Assembly (NCBI GenBank): GCA_965219415.1
Contig: CBDCNP010000002.1
Location: 352,001 to 416,000, forward strand
DNA length: 64,000 nt
DNA from: Candidatus Marinacidobacterales bacterium
GTDB lineage: Bacteria; Acidobacteriota; Vicinamibacteria; Marinacidobacterales; DATDRI01
Reading direction: 5' to 3'
Part shown: one piece after another, positions 1 to 45,445 of the stretch
How the letters are laid out: each line of letters begins with the position of its first letter
Position numbering within the stretch: the first letter of the stretch is position 1
The notes under the pieces: model-generated
The model's input: the letters and a program-made list of their open reading frames with translations, nothing else
What the model was told of the DNA's origin: nothing
The model's database searches: none
Translations under genes and position numbers: made by a program

Positions 1-1276
1 ACCTCCCAGCGCGGAGATGAGGGAGATCGTGCTCCCAGGCTCGTAGGACCCCACCGCAGACGTCACCGGACGGAGGAATGCGATCTGGCGCCCATCGGGT
101 GACCATGTAGGCACCATGGCCACCCCGGGGCCGTCGGTCAGCTGAAGCAGCCCCGTGCCACCAATCTGTTTGACGTAGAGCTGGAGCGGAGCGCCGGCCG
201 TGCCTCCGTCCCAGTTGAAAGCGAGATGGCTTCCGTCGCGCGATAGCTCGGGGTCCCACTCCCCTCCCTCGAAGGAAGTAAGCGGTGAGGTTCGCGGTAT
301 CCGTGTGGAGCGCTCTGCCGGTTGAAAATAAGAAGCAATCGCTACTGCCAGAAGCGCAACTACGGCAGCGGCTGCCATCCCAATCCCGAGATTCCGCCCA
401 AGCCGGGAGACCTGTACCGGTTTCGGGGCACGTGCTTCCTTGACGTCTACCAGCGCCTCTCGTAACTCCTCCATCGACTGGTAACGCTGCTCACGGTCCT
501 TACGAAGCGCCTTGTCTATCACCGCCTCCAGACCCGCCGGCACCAAGCCAGCCACTCGCTCCGGCTCGTCTCGCATGATGGCAGCCAAAACCGAGGCGAC
601 GTTGTCCCCCGAAAAAGCCTGCTCCCCTGTCACCATCTCGTAGAGCACACTGCCGAAGGAGAAAATGTCACTCCGGACATCGATCTCTTTCCCCTGAGCT
701 TGCTCGGGTGACATGTAGGCCCCGGTTCCAAGGATCTCGCCCTCCCGGGTCAAAGCCATCTGTTTATCGACCGTTGGCGCCTCACCAATGGAATCTGGAG
801 GCTCGACAAGCTTCGCCAATCCGAAATCGACGACCTTCACCCGACCCTCTTCGCTCACCATCACGTTGTCCGGTTTCAGATCCCGGTGAACGATTCCGTC
901 CCGATGGGCCCGTGCCAGGCCGTCCGCCATTTGAATGGCGTAGTCGAGGGCTTTCGGCTGGTCGAGGGCTTGATTTCGAATGAGGTCACCCAGCGATTGG
1001 CCGGCCACGTACTGCATCACGATGAAGTGCAGGCCGTCGTGCTCAGTGATGTCGTAGATAGTGACGATGTTGGGATGATCGAGCGCCGAGGCAGCACGCG
1101 CCTCTTGAACGAATCGGCGGTGACGCTCGGGATCGGTGAAAAATTCTTTCCGCAAGGTCTTGAGCGCCACCGGACGGTTCAGCTTCGTATCCACCGCCAG
1201 GTACACCTCTCCCATGCCGCCCACACCGAGGTGCTTCTCGATGCGGTTAATGGCCGAGCGTGTCGCCGGGGTTCAT
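1..1276 (-). CDS. Ser/Thr protein kinase with C-terminal PD40/TolB-like repeats (frameshifted, runs off window edge)
   Basis: Manual minus-strand reading from ATG at 1276: MNPGDTLGH-(1-nt indel)-RIEKHLGVGGMGEVYLAVDTKLNRPVALK, later DLKPDNVMV, KVVDFGLAK, YMSPEQA, DIFSFGSVLYEM, a TM stretch, then WSPDGRQIAF. Absent from ORF track because of indels. Confidence 0.85.
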
Positions 1277-1427
1277 TTCAGCGAAAATCCTCCACGAGCA
1301 TGTTGTAGCCTCTGACACCGTCCAACTGCGTGTCCATGATCAATGGGCGGTCTGGAGACATCATGATTCCCAATTTGCGTTGCCCGTGCTGTTATTAATC
1401 TCGGGCGGTCGCGCCTGCAAACAAGAA

Positions 1428-26545: not shown

Positions 26546-27319
26546 TCACTCCTTGAGAAAGGACATCCAGTCGTCGAAATCATCGTCCCCGATGACCACG
26601 CCGCCGTCGATGGGGTCGGTACCGAGGCCGGGGTCATAGATGAATCTGCCGGCGCCCGGCTCCCTTGTACGACGCACTGGGCCCGCATGGCTGGAACTCG
26701 ATACCCACCGCCTCAGAGAGGCGCGTGGGTTCAGGACCCGCGCAACTGGATCGTTGTCGTAATGCCAGCGGAAGGTTTTGACCTCTTCCAAGATATCCAG
26801 GTTGGGGAAATCGACGAGTAGTTCCTCAACAAACACCCCATCCAGCTTTCGGCTAAACGGATAATCAGGAATCTGATTCTCGAGGTACTCCAGAATTTTC
26901 GCCGTCGCCGAGTCCCGAGGGAGGTGACCATTCGATTCTACGATTCCATCCGAGGCTACGACGTCCTTGGTCGCCAGCCGATTCAAATCGAGCGGACCGG
27001 CGAACTGCACGCCGTTTAGTGCGAGACCATGTGTAGCCGCACCAGAATCATCCTTCCCCCACACAACGCGAGCATCGGTGTCATAGCTGACCTGAGGATA
27101 GAAACAGATCCGCAGTCGCACCTCTTGTCCCGACGAAAGGCATTCATCGGCGACGATCCCTGCTCCGGAGTCCGAGATGTCGTTCACAATGCCGTACATG
27201 GGGGTGGACCCGCCCCCCTGCACCGTCAATACCAAGAGTTTTCTCGGCATGAGGCGCCGGAGCGCCCTTTGCTCGCGGCGACGAAGCGATCTTCGATGGC
27301 TCTCGCCGTGCAAGGTCAT
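26546..27319 (-). CDS. PilZ domain protein with conserved C-terminal helical domain (paralog A)
   Basis: R-rich RxxxR N-terminus, NDISDSG, ARVVW...GVQF; C-domain shared with the next gene. Confidence 0.75.
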   Translation of the reverse strand: MTLHGESHRRSLRRREQRALRRLMPRKLLVLTVQGGGSTPMYGIVNDISDSGAGIVADECLSSGQEVRLRICFYPQVSYDTDARVVWGKDDSGAATHGLALNGVQFAGPLDLNRLATKDVVASDGIVESNGHLPRDSATAKILEYLENQIPDYPFSRKLDGVFVEELLVDFPNLDILEEVKTFRWHYDNDPVARVLNPRASLRRWVSSSSHAGPVRRTREPGAGRFIYDPGLGTDPIDGGVVIGDDDFDDWMSFLKE

Positions 27320-27392: not shown

Positions 27393-28172
27393 TCAAGCTA
27401 CCGGCCAGCGCCTAAGCGCGGAGCGCAGGTTCGTGAACTGCGAAACGGGTTGGCTGTCGTAGTGCCATCGGAAGGTCTTGACTTCTTCTAAAATGTCGAC
27501 CTCCGGAAAATCACCCATTAGCTCGACGATGAACTCGCAATCAAGCCTGCGGTCGAACGGGTAGCCGGAAACCTGGTGCTCGAGGTATTCGAGGATCGCC
27601 CGGGTCACGTCGTCGCCCCAGCTTCTTTCTTCGTAAATCCTTGTTACGTATCGCTCCAAGTAAGGCTCGAGTTCCTTGCGGATCTGCGCGATCCCATCTG
27701 TGTAATCGATTTTCTCGTCGGAAATGAGATGTTCTATGTCCGGGTCGATGATGATGTACGCGAGCTCCTCTTCCTCGGGCGGGTAGTTTTTCAGGAACCC
27801 GGGATTCAAGATCTCCGGGAACAAAAGCCGCCTCCTCAGTTGCTCGCGGCTGAGTGGCGAAAGATCCGCAAAGAACACACCCTGAAGCGAGCCGACGATC
27901 TCCGAGCTGGGGTCGAAGCCTTCGGTGCTCCAAACGATGCGTGCCTTGGTATCGAGAACCCTGCGACGCCCTTCGCTGAGCACCAGCCTGATGGCCGCAC
28001 CTCGGACCAGGGTATGGTCGGTGACGAGGAAGGCGCCGGTCTCCGACATGTTGGAGACCGTGCCTTGTGCGACTTTCAGGTCGCCGTCGAGAATCGCTGC
28101 GGAGAGAGACCGCGTTGGCGCAACACGGGGCGAAATCCGCAAGTCTCCGGGGCTACGTGCTGGTTGAACCAT
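27393..28172 (-). CDS. PilZ domain protein with conserved C-terminal helical domain (paralog B)
   Basis: RISPR, NMSETG, ARIVW...GVFF; ILEYLEHQVSGYPFD...DILEEVKTFRWHYD; AGGAGG RBS. Confidence 0.78.
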   Translation of the reverse strand: MVQPARSPGDLRISPRVAPTRSLSAAILDGDLKVAQGTVSNMSETGAFLVTDHTLVRGAAIRLVLSEGRRRVLDTKARIVWSTEGFDPSSEIVGSLQGVFFADLSPLSREQLRRRLLFPEILNPGFLKNYPPEEEELAYIIIDPDIEHLISDEKIDYTDGIAQIRKELEPYLERYVTRIYEERSWGDDVTRAILEYLEHQVSGYPFDRRLDCEFIVELMGDFPEVDILEEVKTFRWHYDSQPVSQFTNLRSALRRWPVA

Positions 28173-31528: not shown

Positions 31529-33676
31529 TTGGTCGAGCTCAATCACCACGAACGCTACGTAAGGGCCAAAATCCTCTACTACGGTCCTGCCGCTGGTGGA
31601 AAAACCACTAGTCTTCAAGTTCTCCATGCGCGTGCGCATGGAAACCAGAAGATGGAGCTGATCTCGGTCAATACCGCGCAGGATCGGACGATTCTGTTTG
31701 ACCTCCTCCCTTTGCGGACCATCGCCTTCCGCAGCTACGAGCTTCGATTCCAAGTGATCGCCGTTCCGGGACAGCGTCTCTACTCCGCGACACGCAAAAT
31801 GCTTCTCAAGGGAGCGGACACCATCGTCTTTGTCGCTAATTCCGCTGCCGATCGCTTCCAAGAAAATCTACAAAGCCTCAATGAAATGACCGAGAACCTC
31901 TTGAGCCACGGAATCGATCCGTCTTCGTTACCGGTGGTCTTTCAATACAACAAGAGGGATCTCCCGGATACGACGGAGATCAAGACCTTGGATCGTGCCC
32001 TCAACGCTCGGAGCTCCGAGAGCTTCCCTTCCATCGCTATCGAAGAAGAGGGCGTCTTGGAGACGTTCGCCGCTGCACTTCGTCTCACGATGACCGAGCT
32101 TTCGACTCGATACAAGATCGGCGAGGACGTCCGTGGACCGCGCGCGGCGCGCGAATGGGCGGAGCGCGCCATGAAAGCGACCTTCAAGATGGCGCAACCG
32201 GCTCCAAAAGAAGAACCCGTACCCGCCCCCCCGAGGCTGGTGCTTCGTCAACGGCGGATCCAGCGTCAGCGACGGAACCACCACCCGCGACCGTGCTCCG
32301 GGTGCGAACGCCCTCATCGCCTCGGACCAAGCTCGGGTCCGCCCCGGCGGATCCGCCATCCACAGAGTCACCCGCGCCGTCCGCATCAGCCGAAGCTCAG
32401 GATCCCATGGCAGCCCAGGCACTCGTCAACAGCTACGCCGAGGCGGCAGCCGGACTCACCGACCATTTGGGCCGACTCCGCGAGGAGAGGGACGAGGCGA
32501 ACCGAAGGCTGGAAGAACTCTATGCCGTGGCCGACATTGGGCGCAGCCTACTTCATGCCTCGCGCGATCGAGCCAAAGTGTTGCTGGAGGGCGTGGTGAA
32601 GAAGATGTCGGAAATCTTCCGCACTTCGCAGGCTTCGCTATCCCTCATGCGACCGGACGGCGAGTTGGAGGTCGTCGTTCACCAAGGGATCGAAGACGAT
32701 CCTATTGTCTACGGAACTTCGTCCGAAGGTCATTCACTCGGCCCATCACTTCTGGAAGCTGGACAACTTCGCCTCGAGCTGCGCGGAGCGGCCGGTCCCC
32801 TCGGTGAAGCGATCGAGCGAGTCGGTTCGCAGTGTGTCGCGGTCCTGGTGCTTCCACTCCAGACACCGGCTCGCCCCATCGGGATGCTGGTTTTCTATCT
32901 CCCCGAGGAAGCGTCGATCCCGACCGAGTTCGAAATGGAGCACCTCGAGCGCTTGGCGCTCGGGCTGACGTTGACGCTGGAGGTCGCCTCCGAGGCAGTC
33001 TCGACCGACCGTTTGGAAACGATGACCAAAGCGGTGCTCGCCGGACAGCTTGCGCAGCATGTTTTTCGCTCCGCAGACGCGCCCATCGACCAAATCGTGT
33101 CCGCCCTTTATCGACTTCGCTCGCGCCCCGGTTCACCGGCATGGATCACCGACGGCCTCGGCCAGATGGAAGACACGATCTTCCAGCTCCAGAAATTGAG
33201 TCGGGGGGTGGCGGCATTCGGGGACGACGAGCTCCCTCCCGCCGACCGCGTCTCCTTGGAGGAGCTCCTCGGCGAAATCGAGGCTGACTTTCGCGTGCCA
33301 TTGGCCGAGGCGGGGATCACCTTTCAAATCGAGAACAAGGCCGGCGGTGCTTTCATGAAAGCGGAGCCAGTCCTGCTCCGCGCCCTCGTCGGGGGATTGG
33401 TAGAGAACGCTCGCCGGGATCACATCCGGAGGCATGATACGGGTGATCGCACAATTGTCCGACCGAACCGTGCGGCTCGCCATTTTCCATAACGCCGGCG
33501 CGTTGGTTGCTAGGAGAGCTCCCGCGCAAGCCCTGTCATGGCCGTTCGAACGGCGTCTATCCGACATCAACCTGAAGCTGGTCGAAACTATGGTCTCCTA
33601 TTTTCAAGGCGAGCTGACGACCGAAACCCGAGAGAAGGTCGGTACGATGACGACGCTGGCGCTACAAAGCGAGTGA
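31529..33676 (+). CDS. MglA-like small GTPase fused to GAF and degenerate histidine-kinase-like domains (2 frameshifts, ~32230 and ~33430)
   Basis: KILYYGPAAGGKTT, DRTILFD, VPGQ, QYNKRD; Pro/Ala linker; coiled coil; GAF (LPL...IGML); HK-like tail ending GTMTTLAL. Confidence 0.72.
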
Positions 33677-34846
33677 ACTAGGGGTCGGTCGAGGAAGTCG
33701 CGCGCGCCACCGATGCTCGGCCCGATCCCACCGCAAGACCTGAACCAGCCGGGACCATCCCCAAGCCATGACCTGGCACAATCGACGGAGATAAAACCAG
33801 CGAGTGGCACCGCCCGGAAACACTTCGCGCAGGACGTTGTGGCGAGGAAAAGTGAACTCCCACAAGTAGCCCAGCTTTCCGAGAGCCGAGGGGATCGAGA
33901 AAACCACCAAGAGCTCTCCCGTCGCCTCCGCAGCCCGCCTAGCCACGACCGCATCCACGAACTTGCATTCCATGCGATTCAGGCGCGGCAAAGAGACCCT
34001 TACTCCGGGTGGAATCTTCACCGAGAGCAGTTGCTCCATCGCCGAGACCGCATAGGCGACGGAACGCTGGGTCCCGGTTTTCTCGGCTTCGAGCAAGAGC
34101 TCTTCCCAGTCCAGCCGCCGGGAAACCAAGACTAAATCGACCAACCAGATGAGTCGGGAGAACGAGTGCTTCTGCGCGTGCACCGCGAGATGGAGAAACT
34201 GATGAGCGGGTGGCAGAGTCAGCAAGCTTTCGTCACCGGGATCCAAGGGCACCGCCTTGGCCCAGACCGCTTCGGCATCGAACCGAAACGCGAGAACCCG
34301 TCTGCGGATTCGAGACGCGTTGATGAGGTCGGTATGGAGGTCGAACATCACCGGCCCCTTCGTGAAAAGCGTCCCCGATGAGCCCGGGGAACGGAAGCCC
34401 CGCTGAAAGAGCGTATCCCGTACTCGGGGAAGGTCTATCTCTTTCACCAGGAGATCCAGGTCGCTCAAAGGGCGTAACCCCAGCTGGCCTCCGTAAGCGG
34501 TGGTGGTCAGCGCGTCGCCTTTGAGAAGAATGATCCGAAACCCTTCCTTCTGGAGAGCAGCACGAAGCGCAAGTAGCTCTGCGAAATGGCTTCCGTTGGA
34601 GACGAAAATCTCATGGAGCGCCTTGGAGAAAGGCTCCAAGGGAAGCTTCAAACCGTCGATTCTTGTGAGCTGCTCGAGCTGAAGCGCCAGCACACCGCTC
34701 ATGCCTTCTTGCCCCGCCAGCCCGAGCAGACCCGCCCAGTCCAAGGACGGACCGATGCATTCGAGAGCCTCCTCCTTCTCGGCGTTGCCGAGGAAGAGAC
34801 GCCCCGCGGCGAGGAGCAGGTCTAGCTCTGGGCTTCTAGCAACCAC
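33662..34846 (-). CDS. Nucleotidyltransferase family protein (NTP_transf_5-like)
   Basis: ILLKGDAL...Y...LRPLSDLDLLV, DLH, LHLAVHAQKH..SRLIWLVD. Confidence 0.85.
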   Translation of the reverse strand: MVARSPELDLLLAAGRLFLGNAEKEEALECIGPSLDWAGLLGLAGQEGMSGVLALQLEQLTRIDGLKLPLEPFSKALHEIFVSNGSHFAELLALRAALQKEGFRIILLKGDALTTTAYGGQLGLRPLSDLDLLVKEIDLPRVRDTLFQRGFRSPGSSGTLFTKGPVMFDLHTDLINASRIRRRVLAFRFDAEAVWAKAVPLDPGDESLLTLPPAHQFLHLAVHAQKHSFSRLIWLVDLVLVSRRLDWEELLLEAEKTGTQRSVAYAVSAMEQLLSVKIPPGVRVSLPRLNRMECKFVDAVVARRAAEATGELLVVFSIPSALGKLGYLWEFTFPRHNVLREVFPGGATRWFYLRRLCQVMAWGWSRLVQVLRWDRAEHRWRARLPRPTPSSLAL

Positions 34847-35372
34847 AATTGTTGGCAGCCTGACCCGGATTCATGCAGATGCCGTTGCAGCATCGCCACG
34901 TCGGGGTGCAGTCTCCGCCCGGGTTCGCGCACGGTGTACAGTCGGCGAGACCGGAACAGTTAGAATTCGGAATGCAGCTCTGGGCGTGTGCCGGAGTGGG
35001 TGCAACGATCGAGCTCACCACGGGTAGCATTACCGAGGCCGCGAGGCCGACTTTCTTCAACCGACGAATGAAGTCACGCCGAGAGTACGCCTCGATGAAC
35101 GCTTCGTCTTCCAGCAAGCCGACGCGCGCGAGGCGGCCCAAGGCATAGCGCACGACCTCTCGGTCGGCAGGTTCGTCGAGCTCACTCGCCAAGATGCGGG
35201 CCAACTGACTGACGGTCTTCTTGCCATCGCTCCGGCGCCATACGATCGCGGCGGCACGATTGAGACGATGCGCTCGATGGTTTCTCAAGTCATAGACCAG
35301 AACTTCGTCGAGAAGGTTCTGCACCGCTAGATCCTTTTTCCTCCGACGAGGTTTGTCGCGTCCTCTGCGCAT
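34836..35372 (-). CDS. PqqD/RRE domain fused to leader-like segment and Cys-rich peptide (putative RiPP precursor)
   Basis: LAVQNLLDEVLVYD...AHRLNRAAAIVW..SDG...L...GLL (PqqD-like); SRRDFIRR...LPVVSSIVAPTPAHAQS; 46-aa tail with 10 Cys. Confidence 0.8.
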   Translation of the reverse strand: MRRGRDKPRRRKKDLAVQNLLDEVLVYDLRNHRAHRLNRAAAIVWRRSDGKKTVSQLARILASELDEPADREVVRYALGRLARVGLLEDEAFIEAYSRRDFIRRLKKVGLAASVMLPVVSSIVAPTPAHAQSCIPNSNCSGLADCTPCANPGGDCTPTWRCCNGICMNPGQAANNCGC

Positions 35373-35389: not shown

Positions 35390-36226
35390 CTAGGCGGCGC
35401 TATCGAACTCGGCCAGCATTTTCTCCAGTACCTCATCCACTTCGCCTCGCGCACCGATCAAGACCGGCGCCCGACGGACGGCGCGCTTCAACATCTCGAG
35501 CGCCCGTTGAGGCGCCAGGCGGGCCGAGGCGGTGTTGGCCAACAGCGCGAGCGCCGCTTGACCGGGAGATAGCGTCTGCGGACTCCAACTTGCTCCCGGC
35601 TTGTACTCACTCACAATGACCAGCCCGACGGGTAGCGGTGGCCCCCCGGCCGTCACACCCAGTTCCTCAACCAACCCAGATATGGAAGGCCTGTCCCCCT
35701 CGAGGGTCCCAGTTGGGTGGGGAAAAGCGTGTACGCGGCCGCGTGAATCGAAGACCGCATATTCGTGGGAGTAATACGTTGCGCCCGCCCTGACCAATCC
35801 GGCGACCAGAGTGCTCTTGCCGCTGAAGGTCTTGCCCGGCAAAACGATTGCCCGGCCGTGCCATCCGACCACCCCGGCGTGGACGAACACTCGTGTCTCC
35901 GAGGTTTCGGCAACAAAGAGCCGCATGTCCGACGCGAAAACCTGAAGTAGATCGTCGAGGTCCATCGTCCTCGAGATCCGTTCCGTATTGGCATAGAGAA
36001 GGTTGTACCAGCGGACCCGCTCGGGGGAGCCTGTTGCCTGGTTGGACCCCACCCGGAGCGAATACAAACGATCCACGACGCGGGATCTCGCCGGTTTCCA
36101 ACCAGGAGAGAGCAACGGCTCGAGACGCTCGAGCACTTCCGCTTGGTTGACGCGAATCCCTACACGAGTACCGTAGACTTGATAGGCGATCCCCGCTTCC
36201 CAACCCAACCGATCGAGCTCCTTCAT
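35390..36226 (-). CDS. HprK-related P-loop kinase
   Basis: FVHAGVVGWHGRAIVLPGKTFSGKSTLVAGLVRAGATYYSHEYAV; probable start MKELDRLGW at 36226 (ORF extends to 36361). Confidence 0.8.
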   Translation of the reverse strand: MKELDRLGWEAGIAYQVYGTRVGIRVNQAEVLERLEPLLSPGWKPARSRVVDRLYSLRVGSNQATGSPERVRWYNLLYANTERISRTMDLDDLLQVFASDMRLFVAETSETRVFVHAGVVGWHGRAIVLPGKTFSGKSTLVAGLVRAGATYYSHEYAVFDSRGRVHAFPHPTGTLEGDRPSISGLVEELGVTAGGPPLPVGLVIVSEYKPGASWSPQTLSPGQAALALLANTASARLAPQRALEMLKRAVRRAPVLIGARGEVDEVLEKMLAEFDSAA

Positions 36227-36510
36227 GGATGGCGAGCCACCGTCGAGCCGTGGCAGAAGCGAACGTGCCAAGCGATTCTCTCCCTGTTCGAGTTTAGACC
36301 CCGGCGCCTCGGAGACACAGTGTTCCCAGAGAGTCCGACGAAAACCCGTTGTGATGAACACTTAAATTTATCTGTTACTTGTATCAACAGGTTACCAAAA
36401 GTACTCGACCGAGGCAAGAACCGCCCACGCGCAGATCTCGTTTGCGCTAGCGACCGCCGCTATATAGCCTGGGCCGCACGAAAAAGGCGGTTTTACAGGA
36501 GTCAGGGGCA

Positions 36511-39293: not shown

Positions 39294-40499
39294 CTACCGG
39301 CGGCGGTTCCGAGTCGGGAACTTCTGGAATTTCTGGGTAGCGGCGATTTCGTTCAAGCCCTCGCGGACGAGCGATTCGATATCCGAACTCGGCTTCAAAT
39401 CGAGCGCATCCATTAGGTGCTGGTAGGCGGCGGTCGGCTCTCGGAAGGCGTGAAGCTGCAGGAGACCGGCATAGGCGTGGGCCTCAGCCGCGCCCTTATC
39501 CGCCGGATAGTCGCGAAGATGGCGCTGGTAGATAGTGAGCGCGGCCTTGGCGTGCCCGTTCCTCGCAAGCCAATTCCCCAGCGAGATCGAATCATCCGGA
39601 TCCAAGAGACGGCGAGTCGCGTTGGACGGTAGCTCGAAGTAGAGTTTCCCTGCCTCTTCGAACCTCTGTTCTCGAATCGCGTCGGCGACCTTTTTCCGAA
39701 TGGGCGGTGCCTCCGCTGCCGGTGCCCGTCGAGCGCGAAACTCTTCCGGTCGCGAGCGGACCTCGCGAAGACCGGCGATCCATGCCACCAACACTCCCGC
39801 TAAGAAACCCCCGATGTGCGCACCATGCGCCACACCGCCACCGCCACCTCGTGAGATCAGAAAGGGGAAGATATTCTCGAGTACGAGATAGACCCCCAGC
39901 ACCAGGCGCGAACGCAATAGCATCGTTTGCATGATGAACGGAAAAAAGAAAATGAAGACCCGCACTTTGTTGTGAGGAAACCATAGGAAGTAGAAACCGA
40001 GCACTCCGGAAATGGCTCCCGATGCCCCCACCAGCGGAAGCGGTGACCGGCCGGAGAACATTCCGTAGAACAGAGTCGCCGCGACACCGGTGGCCAAGTA
40101 CCAAAAGAGATACTTGAAGGATCCCAGTCGGTGCTCCACGTTGTCTCCATAAATCCACAGGAACAGCATGTTTCCGAAGAGATGAATGAAGCCGCCGTGG
40201 AGGAACATCGCGGTGAAGAGGGTGACCAGAGAAGGGTCTATGCTTCGAAAGCCCCATGAGAAGACAACCAGGTCGTAGGCTGATATTTGTTGAATCACCT
40301 GGGACGGTGAGACGCCCGGCGGCAGGCTTTCACTCACCGCGTTCACATACTCCTGCACGCGCGGATCCTGCGGGTCGGCGGCATTGAAACTGAGTGGCAA
40401 CGAGATGAGAACGTAGACCGCGACGTTCATCGCAATGAGAGCGTAGTTTACGTACGGAACGCCTTGGGGATTAGGCTCATCTCCTAGTGGCAAGAACAT
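39294..40499 (-). CDS. Rhomboid intramembrane serine protease with C-terminal TPR-like region
   Basis: FLHGG..HLFGNM, GASGA, AHIGGF. Confidence 0.92.
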   Translation of the reverse strand: MFLPLGDEPNPQGVPYVNYALIAMNVAVYVLISLPLSFNAADPQDPRVQEYVNAVSESLPPGVSPSQVIQQISAYDLVVFSWGFRSIDPSLVTLFTAMFLHGGFIHLFGNMLFLWIYGDNVEHRLGSFKYLFWYLATGVAATLFYGMFSGRSPLPLVGASGAISGVLGFYFLWFPHNKVRVFIFFFPFIMQTMLLRSRLVLGVYLVLENIFPFLISRGGGGGVAHGAHIGGFLAGVLVAWIAGLREVRSRPEEFRARRAPAAEAPPIRKKVADAIREQRFEEAGKLYFELPSNATRRLLDPDDSISLGNWLARNGHAKAALTIYQRHLRDYPADKGAAEAHAYAGLLQLHAFREPTAAYQHLMDALDLKPSSDIESLVREGLNEIAATQKFQKFPTRNRRR

Positions 40500-44724: not shown

Positions 44725-45445
44725 ATGGCAGCCATCCCTAGGCGAATCGATCTACCCGTCCCTTACCCGGTGCTTTTGAAATCGGCCCTCAACTCCGGCC
44801 GGGGACAGCTGGTCAACGTCTCTTCAGATGGTGTCTATGTGGCCACGCCGATGCTTCTCCTCCCCCAAGCGCAGGTGAGTATGCTCATCATCCTGCCGGA
44901 GATGAAACCGGTGAAGGCCGAGGCGATCGTCACCTGGGAGAACCGGGGTACCGTGCGTCGCGGAGGCCTACCGGAGGGCTATGGCCTGCGCTTCATCAGG
45001 CTCCCCGAGGAGACCGCGCACAAAATCCGGGAGCTCCTAGACACCGCCACGGATCCGACGCCGACCATGCCCTTGGGACAAAAATACAGCGACTACTTTC
45101 AAGCCGAAGAAGAGCAACCCGAAGGACCTCCCTATCCACTCCAGGAGGACTCGCTCCTCCACCACGCTCCGGACCGGCCCGGAATATTCTCACTCTCTTA
45201 CGATCGGGCCCAGGAGGCTTGGATTGGCCGGGCGGACCACAGCCTTCGAGGGACCCTCGCGAGTTTCGTCGGCGAGTATGCTTACTTCTACTGTGAGGTC
45301 GTCGAGGACGAGACGGAGCGCTTCTATAGCGAGTGCAAGTCCTATCACCGCATGGGTGGCGAGCGGGGACAGCTCGACAACCCCGAGCATCCCACAGCGC
45401 CTTCACGTTCGGGCCTCGAATAGTCCCGTCTGCGTGCCAGTCTAA
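44725..45445 (+). CDS. PilZ domain fused to GIY-YIG-like small domain (probable 1-nt indel at 45422)
   Basis: PRR...NVSSDG...AIVTW...GYGLRF; PGIFSL...WIGRAD..LRGTL...EC..YH...DNPEHP; removing one A extends it to ECPVCVPV*. Confidence 0.62.

Follow-up and report, generated by a model that had tools for sequence, protein, structure and literature searches.

Several described systems share parts with the gene reported here. In the bsf lasso peptide cluster BsfK, a homologue of HprK, adds a phosphate to Ser3 of the core, and this reaction is strongly enhanced by BsfB1, a PqqD-like recognition element (RRE) of the kind that serves peptides that the ribosome makes and that are modified after translation (RiPPs), as reported (PMC10368454). 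A kinase and nucleotidyltransferase pair phospho-glycosylates pseudomycoidin, and known lasso kinases mostly target a C-terminal Ser, as reported (PMC8498205). Regarding export, a 2026 review of the twin-arginine translocation (Tat) pathway names five substrate classes, including lipoproteins (class II) and proteins such as FecR, with an internal, uncleaved signal after a folded cytoplasmic domain (class V), and states that Tat tolerates small, unfolded, hydrophilic substrates (PMC13673990). Internal Tat signals are also reported for polytopic Rieske proteins (PMC3471235, PMC5449189). The window analysed here, a stretch of 64,000 nucleotides from a Candidatus Marinacidobacterales bacterium, a soil-type member of the Acidobacteriota (assembly GCA_965219415.1, contig CBDCNP010000002.1, positions 352,001 to 416,000), carries a gene that fuses a PqqD-like RRE to an internal Tat-type signal and a Cys-rich tail. 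Judged from its sequences, this layout defines a very large unnamed family whose probable products are secreted mini-proteins rich in disulfides, made by a route not yet described. The reading that we favour, to which we give about an even chance, is that the product would be a RiPP-like precursor which chaperones itself, has a twin-arginine-type signal as its leader and gives rise, by export and signal peptidase cleavage, to a disulfide-rich mini-protein.

The gene and the parts of its product are located in the window as follows.

34836-35372, minus strand: whole fusion gene, 178 codons plus stop, from the open reading frame (ORF) list; RRE, internal Tat-type signal and Cys-rich tail
35106-35357, minus strand: PqqD-like RRE, approximately residues 6-89, from PF05402 and structural matches
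35085-35105, minus strand: variable linker, residues 90-96, with a mean information of 0.86 bits against 2.47 for the RRE
35052-35084, minus strand: n-region S97-K107, which holds the twin-arginine motif (RR codons 35076-35081), from the family logo
35001-35051, minus strand: h-region V108-A124, 17 uncharged residues, from composition and hydropathy
34998-35024, minus strand: conserved P117-x-V-x-S-I-V-A-P125 motif; prediction docks it on the RRE sheet as a beta-strand
34983-35000, minus strand: c-region P125-T-P-A128-H-A130; signal peptidase I is predicted to cut behind A130, between 34983 and 34982
34839-34982, minus strand: predicted mature peptide Q131-C178, 48 amino acids with 10 Cys, from the properties of the family tails

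The n-region of the protein reads Y96-S97-R98-R99-D-F-I-R-R-L-K-K107, and a hand check of the RR codons gave acgccg at 35076-35081 of the plus strand, with CGG CGT as reverse complement. After K107 come 17 uncharged residues, V108-GLAASVMLPVVSSIV-A124, then P125-T-P-A128-H-A130 and Q131-S132; C133 is the first Cys of the whole 178-residue protein, and the last 48 residues contain ten. The sequence-only reading of this DNA, which had reported SRRDFIRR, a hydrophobic stretch, AHA followed by QS and then the first Cys, proved correct in coordinates and wording when the ORF was read again. It had also placed a PqqD domain ahead of the signal, and PF05402 indeed matches residues 23-86 with 31.2 bits, over a cut-off of 23.4. 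Its premise that Tat signals are normally N-terminal needs correction, since internal ones behind a folded cytoplasmic domain are known, as a minority class (class V).

Tat motifs are of the S/T-R-R-x-F-L-K type, and signal peptidase I recognition follows the -3/-1 rule. A composite pattern, consisting of [ST]RR.[FLIVM][LIVM][KRQ], a hydrophobic 12-mer and AxA 22-42 residues later, occurs three times among the 22,155 ORFs of at least 100 amino acids (4.65 million residues) of the organism's own genome (G000; 8.05 Mb in 3 contigs). Two of the three are N-terminal and the sole internal one is the fusion gene. A word-indexed search found 51 homologues, the close ones of equal length to the query, and HMMER over 1.84 billion cluster representatives gave 5588 matches at E<=1e-3, 2980 of them at E<=1e-10. 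The best 150 of the 5588 are 123-292 amino acids long, align near end to end and have an identical order of parts throughout. Three alignments were built: A1 contains 44 of the 51 first homologues, without P0009, P0011, P0027, P0041, P0045, P0049 and P0050 (fragments or odd lengths); A2 contains 148 sequences with 33-82% identity to the query, of which 21 come from the first set and 127 are taken from the 148 named P0052-P0199, without the fragment P0055, nine longer proteins (215-292 amino acids) and P0189-P0199; and A3, used for a truncated model, covers residues 1-136 only. Conservation values and counts out of 148 refer to A2.

Both arginines are kept almost without exception (R98 100%, R99 99%), preceded by S or T at position 97 in 87%. 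Further on, P117 is present in 98%, V/I119 in 98%, S/T121 in 95%, A124 in 83% and P125, at -6 from the predicted cleavage site, in 97%. A128 (-3) occurs in 76%, with V in 11, I in 3 and S in 2%, and A130 (-1) in 91%, with G in 2%; S/T132 follows in 93% and C133 in 77%. The family logo around the RR is [S63 T13]-R100-R100-[E/D/Q]-[V/F/L]-[L/I/V/M]-[R/K]-[R/K]-[L/V]-G, and both this logo and the S-R-R-D-F-I-R of the fusion protein conform to the Tat motif. By script, the RR and the hydrophobic stretch are present in 194 of 199 relatives; the five misses are four fragments, three of which still have the RR, and one full-length protein, P0070, which reads R-Q. Of the 148 relatives, 39 match the Tat profile TIGR01409 at E<=0.1, the best of them at 2e-5, and 33 match TIGR02811. 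The h-region of the family has a median of 17 uncharged residues (up to 21), a mean Kyte-Doolittle hydropathy of 2.09 (2.12 for the 17-residue stretch of the fusion protein itself) and a composition of A23 V19 L15 I11 S9 G8 P6 T5 %. Together with the small residues at -3 and -1 it has the make-up of a Tat signal peptide; the location is the departure, the RR standing at residues 98-99, after a folded domain of about 90 residues. Because the composite motif is rare in the genome and conserved across the family, the RR and AxA signal is more than a chance occurrence. Lack of conservation of these two elements among homologues, which the sequence-only reading had named as the result that would speak against it, did not occur, both being nearly invariant.

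An artefact, in the form of a chance motif, a wrong start or two fused genes, is refuted by the sequence evidence and has a negligible probability. The long ORFs of some relatives (336-462 amino acids) are upstream read-through in GC-rich DNA, and the proteins begin at the usual place. Regarding an internal alternative start, no start codon is kept in the linker, position 96 being M in 9%. A search with residues 93-178 found no stand-alone protein of 30-96 amino acids composed of signal and core, at the sensitivity of the homologue search.

The N-terminal domain consists of three strands (15-19, 24-28 and 33-37) and three helices. PF05402 matches all 148 relatives, and with a score over the gathering threshold and a winged-helix fold the domain is assigned to the RREs. 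Its closest structures are leader-bound lasso B1 RREs (6jx3_B with Z 10.2, rmsd 2.4 and 83 aligned residues; 5v1u_A with Z 9.7), with Foldseek TMt values of 0.70-0.77, and the fold-search matches listed for the full model fall on the RRE (residues 4-92). The full AlphaFold2 model on A2 (mean pLDDT 88.5, pTM 0.72) does not place the signal segment in one long helix but in a helix at 98-108 followed by a five-residue beta-strand, V119-V123. The model of residues 1-136 (pLDDT 83.8, pTM 0.78, five models 82.0-83.8) keeps the strand at 119-123, and its other strands (9-10, 15-19, 24-28 and 33-37) are all in the RRE. As the strand persists without the tail, and the RRE holds the sole other strands, it appears to be modelled against the RRE sheet. 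The information content in A2 also alternates, with 4.15, 3.51 and 3.55 bits at positions 117, 119 and 121 and 2.05 and 1.43 bits at 118 and 120, and this two-residue period fits a strand bound on one face. A charged residue lies at most four positions before A124, that is within or at the end of the P117-P125 motif, in 11 of the 148 members; a charge there is awkward in a membrane helix and harmless on the open face of a strand. A complex prediction of RRE residues 1-95 against residues 96-135 scored 0.02 (mark 0.32) and is no evidence either way. The docking of LPVVSSIVAP on the RRE sheet that the sequence-only reading had proposed gains indirect support, from the predicted strand, the tail-less model and the rhythm of conservation.

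Mean information per A2 column is 2.47 bits in the RRE, 0.86 in the linker, 2.38 in the n-region, 2.33 in the h-region, 2.84 in the c-region and 1.18 in the tail, and the identity of random pairs is 0.47 for the signal region against 0.32 for the tail. By these sequence measures the signal segment is conserved as strongly as the RRE and the tail is variable, which is the pattern of leader and core, unlike that of an ordinary signal peptide. One codon-level comparison was made, between the fusion gene and its counterpart in locus L002 (overall identity 77%). Identity reaches 97% in the signal segment, where dN/dS is 0.023 and the single change turns A130 into G, against 85% in the RRE (dN/dS 0.32) and 49% in the tail, where dS is saturated and the ratio unreliable. 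The conserved leader and hypervariable core of a RiPP precursor are thus both present.

The tails of the family have a median length of 44.5 amino acids (range 19-85) and contain 17.2% Cys, against 1.4% upstream. Their Cys count is even in 140 of the 148 members, mostly 6, 8 or 10, odd in seven and zero in one. An even count is what pairing of all Cys in disulfides would give, and the tail would then reside in an oxidising compartment outside the cytoplasm. In the full model the pLDDT of the tail is 85-96. No Pfam family reaches its cut-off on the tail of the fusion protein (Stig1 17.2 bits against 24.1) or covers the tails of the family, weak knottin-type Pfam matches occur among the relatives (UPF0506 in 5, Toxin_29 in 2 and Toxin_22 in 1 of 148), and a sequence search of the PDB with the tail returned nothing meaningful (best E 1.5). 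The last residue is C in 35 members, P in 25 and V in 11. Two family members, at L050:6887-7390 (plus strand) and L052:6926-7423 (minus strand), keep the RRE and the RR and have a small or missing tail: that of L050 stops five residues past its AxA-type site, and in the second the h-region is degenerate and Cys are absent. These may be decaying copies or chaperone-only forms.

The fusion gene forms a tight three-gene unit, all on the minus strand, with the genes of two putative modifying enzymes.

35390-36361, minus strand: HprK-related kinase, 323 amino acids, TIGR04352 E 2.2e-12 over residues 135-215; ends 17 nucleotides upstream of the fusion gene
33662-34846, minus strand: NTP_transf_5 nucleotidyltransferase, 394 amino acids, PF14907 E 6.1e-40; its start overlaps the end of the fusion gene by 11 nucleotides

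The kinase scores 46.7 bits on TIGR04352, against a cut-off of 200, and sequence searches of the PDB gave nothing meaningful for either enzyme (best E 0.57 for the kinase, no match for the nucleotidyltransferase). In order to describe the association, 301 Acidobacteriota genomes sampled in both searches were taken as one set, since their handles agree; a fusion was counted when the family-profile match ran through the AxA site, and a kinase at E<=1e-10. The fusion was found in 22 genomes, the kinase in 24, both in 21 and neither in 276, so that the kinase is present in 21 of the 22 fusion-bearing genomes against 3 of the 279 others. The only genome with a fusion alone is G077, where the gene is cut by the contig end, and those with a kinase alone are G190, which has a decayed fusion copy, G011 and G017 (a weak match). 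The 21 double-positive genomes span 10 families. There are up to four fusion-family matches per genome and yet a single kinase match (two in G211), and in three loci the kinase and nucleotidyltransferase genes lie side by side, without an intervening fusion gene. This suggests, from gene content, that one enzyme pair serves one or several substrate genes.

Gene order was compared in 21 related loci (L002 and L033-L052) with 22 fusion genes, 20 of the loci being chosen mostly as high-scoring and full-length rather than at random. Profile search found the kinase among the neighbours in 13, NTP_transf_5 in 11 and both in 9. By genome co-occurrence and by adjacency, the genetic coupling of modifying enzymes to a precursor that is expected of a RiPP system is found here. 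A Pfam scan detected no known RiPP-type leader protease and no ABC exporter within approximately 10 kb of the cassette, in agreement with the sequence-only reading, which had noted that a dedicated leader protease and transporter are absent here.

The components needed for general export are encoded in the same genome, with TatC (231.6 bits), two TatA/B genes (73 and 65.8 bits) and three S26 signal peptidase I genes, although with an assembly completeness of 96.33% and contamination of 8.45% the presence of Tat machinery and signal peptidase could stem from a contaminant contig. No VKOR gene (PF07884) was detected in this 96% complete genome, in a search that did not extend to DsbA and DsbB.

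These observations can be assembled into a possible sequence of events for the self-chaperoned precursor. The RRE would fold in the cytoplasm and bind its own P117-x-V-x-S-I-V-A-P125 in cis as an added beta-strand, as the models predict. The HprK-related kinase and NTP_transf_5 would then act on the tethered protein, as their linkage and the lasso precedents suggest. By analogy with the lasso kinases, the likeliest reaction would be Ser/Thr phosphorylation, possibly followed by a transfer onto the phosphate, with S/T132, S/T121 and S/T97 as candidate acceptors. The RR signal would insert N-in/C-out, by Tat or possibly by Sec; Tat is favoured because the consensus is complete and almost invariant and the h-region is Ala/Val-rich and Leu-poor. 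A cut by signal peptidase I after A128-x-A130, predicted from the pattern at -3, -1 and -6, would free a peptide of about 48 amino acids, whose ten Cys would form five disulfides outside the cytoplasm, as the even-Cys rule implies. A dedicated leader protease or exporter would be unnecessary. The interpretation offered by the sequence-only reading is thus supported in part, by the conserved RR and AxA, the predicted docking and the lack of a local protease and transporter; an uncleaved anchor as rival and the co-occurrence with the kinase were not listed in it.

A number of points weigh against this reading. Export, cleavage, binding and modification of the fusion protein are all inferred from sequence, models and linkage, and the docking was read from the secondary-structure strings of two AlphaFold2 runs, not from coordinates. 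TIGR01409, the top NCBIfam match of residues 93-178, stays under its cut-off of 16.7 bits both on that segment (14.5 bits) and on the whole fusion protein (14.2 bits), and PF10518 matches just 3 of the 148 relatives at E<=0.01. A basic residue in the c-region occurs in just 10 of the 148 members, leaving 138 without Sec-avoidance charge, so the sequence does not argue against Sec. The conservation of AxA could serve RRE binding, not peptidase recognition, and the uncharged stretch, with a median of 17 and up to 21 residues, could span the membrane as an anchor. Regarding modification, the family lacks a conserved C-terminal Ser, its conserved hydroxyls being S/T97, S/T121 and S/T132. Neither the kinase nor NTP_transf_5 is adjacent in 6 of the 21 loci, and the co-occurrence of the kinase is linkage, not a statistic, as related genomes are non-independent and the count overstates the number of events.

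In the main rival reading, the protein would resemble FecR, a class V Tat substrate, and would escape cleavage. It would be bitopic and permanently anchored by its RR segment, the RRE facing the cytoplasm and the Cys-rich domain the periplasm, and might couple an outside signal to the kinase and nucleotidyltransferase inside. The layout is that of class V (a folded N-domain, an internal RR signal and a C-terminal part whose even Cys point to an oxidising compartment), an even Cys number fits a periplasmic domain whether cleaved or not, the uncharged stretch has 19-21 residues in 30 of the 148 members, and linkage to a kinase would suit a signalling device. However, A128, A130 and P125 keep the pattern that signal peptidase I requires and that an anchor is not known to require, the mid-stretch P117 occurs in 98%, and 11 of the 148 members have a charge inside the stretch. 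Hypervariable tails exist in multiple copies, a genome having as many as four matches, the L050 protein ends five residues past its AxA-type site with no ectodomain, and Pfam finds no FecR-family domain. On this balance we regard the anchored form as unlikely, though a serious contender.

It is rather improbable that the segment has no role in Tat export and is only an RRE-bound leader or a Sec-type signal, the RR serving RRE or kinase binding or positive-inside charge; this explanation overlaps the others in part. It would account for a segment far better conserved than usual signal peptides, including residues of the h- and c-regions that Tat does not read, and it agrees with the rarity of Sec-avoidance charge, with the position of the fusion protein under the TIGR01409 cut-off and with the fact that disulfide-rich peptides are normally exported unfolded. 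Yet the full Tat consensus is kept, with S/T at -1 of the RR (87%), hydrophobic residues at +2/+3 and K/R at +4/+5, and among 199 members an arginine is missing from just one full-length protein. An Ala/Val-rich h-region with modest Leu is Tat-like rather than Sec-like, and that of the family is rich in Ala and Val, with 15% Leu. A further explanation, a Tat- or Sec-exported lipoprotein in which A130-Q/A131-S/T132-C133 is a lipobox and C133 is lipidated after a cut by signal peptidase II, is very improbable. C133 occurs in 77%, with small residues in front of it (at -1 S64/T29 %, at -2 A39/Q29 %), and lipoproteins form class II of the Tat substrates according to the review (PMC13673990). The 23% of members without C133 do not have the invariant Cys of a lipobox. 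The Cys total including C133 is even in 140 of 148, so that lipidation would leave an unpaired Cys; on this parity C133 is argued to be disulfide-bonded and the lipoprotein reading was rejected. T at -1 of a lipobox, found here in 29%, is also unusual against the consensus.

The self-chaperoned precursor could also be elaborated into a kinase-licensed export switch, which we consider speculative and quite unlikely. The RRE would sequester the h- and c-regions as a strand and retain the precursor in the cytoplasm until phosphorylation of S121 or S/T132 by the HprK-related kinase, with a further transfer by NTP_transf_5, releases the signal for Tat or marks the mature N-terminus. In that case one segment would be at the same time RiPP leader, chaperone ligand, export signal and protease site, and the Acidobacteriota would hold a large unrecognised class of modified, knottin-like peptides made with no dedicated protease or exporter.

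Members of the family are named in public records as 'PqqD family protein' or 'hypothetical protein', and its commonest known phylum is Acidobacteriota. The nearest named record is a Candidatus Marinacidobacterales metagenome-assembled genome (locus L002, found by single-protein search). A search of the full-text literature, with subscription journals and supplements outside its reach, found no description of a natural PqqD or RRE fused to a Tat-type signal or to its own substrate. If the favoured reading is true, RiPP logic would gain a recognition domain fused to its own substrate and a leader that doubles as a general export signal, which would account for a cassette of three genes that manages with neither leader protease nor transporter. 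The widespread, uncharacterised pair of HprK-related kinase and NTP_transf_5 would gain a concrete protein substrate, and a dominant soil phylum would make thousands of hypervariable disulfide-rich mini-proteins, which may be antimicrobials or signals.

The outer neighbours of the cassette in the window encode an SDR, a cyclase, a beta-lactamase-fold protein, a rhomboid, a TonB-dependent receptor, a cysteine dioxygenase, a small GTPase and a GAF protein. The Ras/Arf-like small GTPase gene (31529-32599) and then the GAF-domain gene lie just downstream of the cassette, and three PilZ-domain genes lie within 20 kb (26546-27319 and 27393-28172 on the minus strand, 44725-45423 on the plus strand). 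The rhomboid intramembrane protease (39294-40499, minus strand, PF01694 E 3.2e-32) is approximately 3 kb upstream on the same strand as the cassette. As a candidate dedicated protease it was set aside: three opposite-strand genes separate the two, and the rhomboid is not among the families common to at least 3 of the 21 loci; L002 has an ORF of equal length (401 amino acids) in a similar position, a likeness of length and place alone. The genome also holds a second kinase copy (G000:C3:541385-542173; L073:1330-2007), 49% identical, with a 225-amino-acid ORF and an in-frame TGA, which is probably decayed and has no PqqD gene beside it, and a second NTP_transf_5 (C3:1753866-1754592) split over two frames.

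Among the 21 loci, other recurrent neighbours, each in 4-5 loci, are glycosyltransferases, a Wzz/tyrosine-kinase protein, very large Peptidase_C25 proteins and TPR proteins. Very large proteins (1021-2270 amino acids) adjoin the fusion gene at L033:2691-5756, L034:8504-14188 and L047:7585-14397. Their cluster is found in 4 of the 21 loci, and a scan of one representative revealed a Peptidase_C25 (gingipain-type) domain at its C-terminus. Such Peptidase_C25 proteins could conceivably process the exported peptides. In five loci of genome family f39 (L037, L040, L041, L042 and L043) the cassette lies within a polysaccharide-type locus with two or three glycosyltransferases (GT1/GT4, Glycos_transf_4), a TsaD-like gene in four of the five and a GNAT gene in three.

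The HPr-rel-A system, composed of a TIGR04352 kinase A and a TIGR04353 PqqD chaperone, likewise has a PqqD-family gene beside an HprK-related kinase. TIGR04353 matches 93 of the 148 relatives at E<=0.1; the fusion protein itself scores 18.7 bits against a cut-off of 35 and is not a member, and its genome has no TIGR04353 match at E<=1e-5. In contrast to the fusion protein, true TIGR04353 proteins, as read in five over-cut-off loci, are stand-alone, of approximately 93-135 amino acids, and have neither RR segment nor tail. In locus L059 a small ORF (1042-1413, plus strand) precedes a true TIGR04353 gene (1465-1746) and a kinase gene (1724-2629). It encodes a Tat-like R-R-A-L-I-K and a hydrophobic stretch with no Cys and no AxA, would be about 84 amino acids long if read from an internal Met, and may represent a precursor in its own right within the canonical HPr-rel-A system. 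Nine further HPr-rel-A loci (L060-L068, about 1.5 kb on each side) gave no hit in this motif scan.

The lasso systems with B1/E RREs, HPr-kinase homologues and nucleotidyltransferases (BsfB1/BsfK/BsfN, PadeK, PsmK/PsmN) are alike in the RRE fold and in the cassette of an HprK-type kinase with a nucleotidyltransferase, the kinase of the present locus being likened to BsfK by family description and not by direct sequence comparison. In the bsf system the RRE boosts the kinase on a Ser near the start of the core, and here S/T132, 93% conserved, is at +2 of the predicted mature peptide. Unlike in the lasso systems, there is no lasso cyclase, B2 protease or ABC exporter nearby, the RRE is fused to its presumed substrate, and the bound segment is Tat-like and not a YxxPxL leader. 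A lasso core has about 20 amino acids, whereas the Cys-rich domain of the fusion family has 20-85. Conotoxins and knottins have a conserved signal region and a hypervariable mature part on an even-Cys framework, with N-terminal Sec signals and no chaperone domain or kinase. The pattern of constraint in these venom and defence peptide precursors is alike, with no homology to the fusion family.

As described in the Tat review, FecR (class V) has the same order of parts as the fusion protein, namely a folded N-domain, an internal RR signal and a periplasm-bound C-terminal part; its signal is there described as uncleaved, whereas the fusion family keeps an AxA site and P at -6 and has no Pfam relation to FecR. 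The exported part of the fusion protein is also small, hypervariable and multi-copy. The redox enzyme maturation proteins (REMPs) TorD, DmsD and NapD are cytoplasmic proteins that hold a Tat signal until the substrate is ready; their action is in trans, their folds are different and their substrates are cofactor enzymes. The idea is shared, but here the candidate chaperone is a PqqD-like RRE acting in cis, and its cargo is a cofactor-less Cys-rich peptide. The five Tat classes do not cover an internal signal that has a conserved peptidase site and is bound by the preceding domain. If the favoured reading is true, the family would stand beside them as a sixth kind of Tat substrate, internal and cleaved, and its RRE would be the cis counterpart of the Tat signal chaperones.

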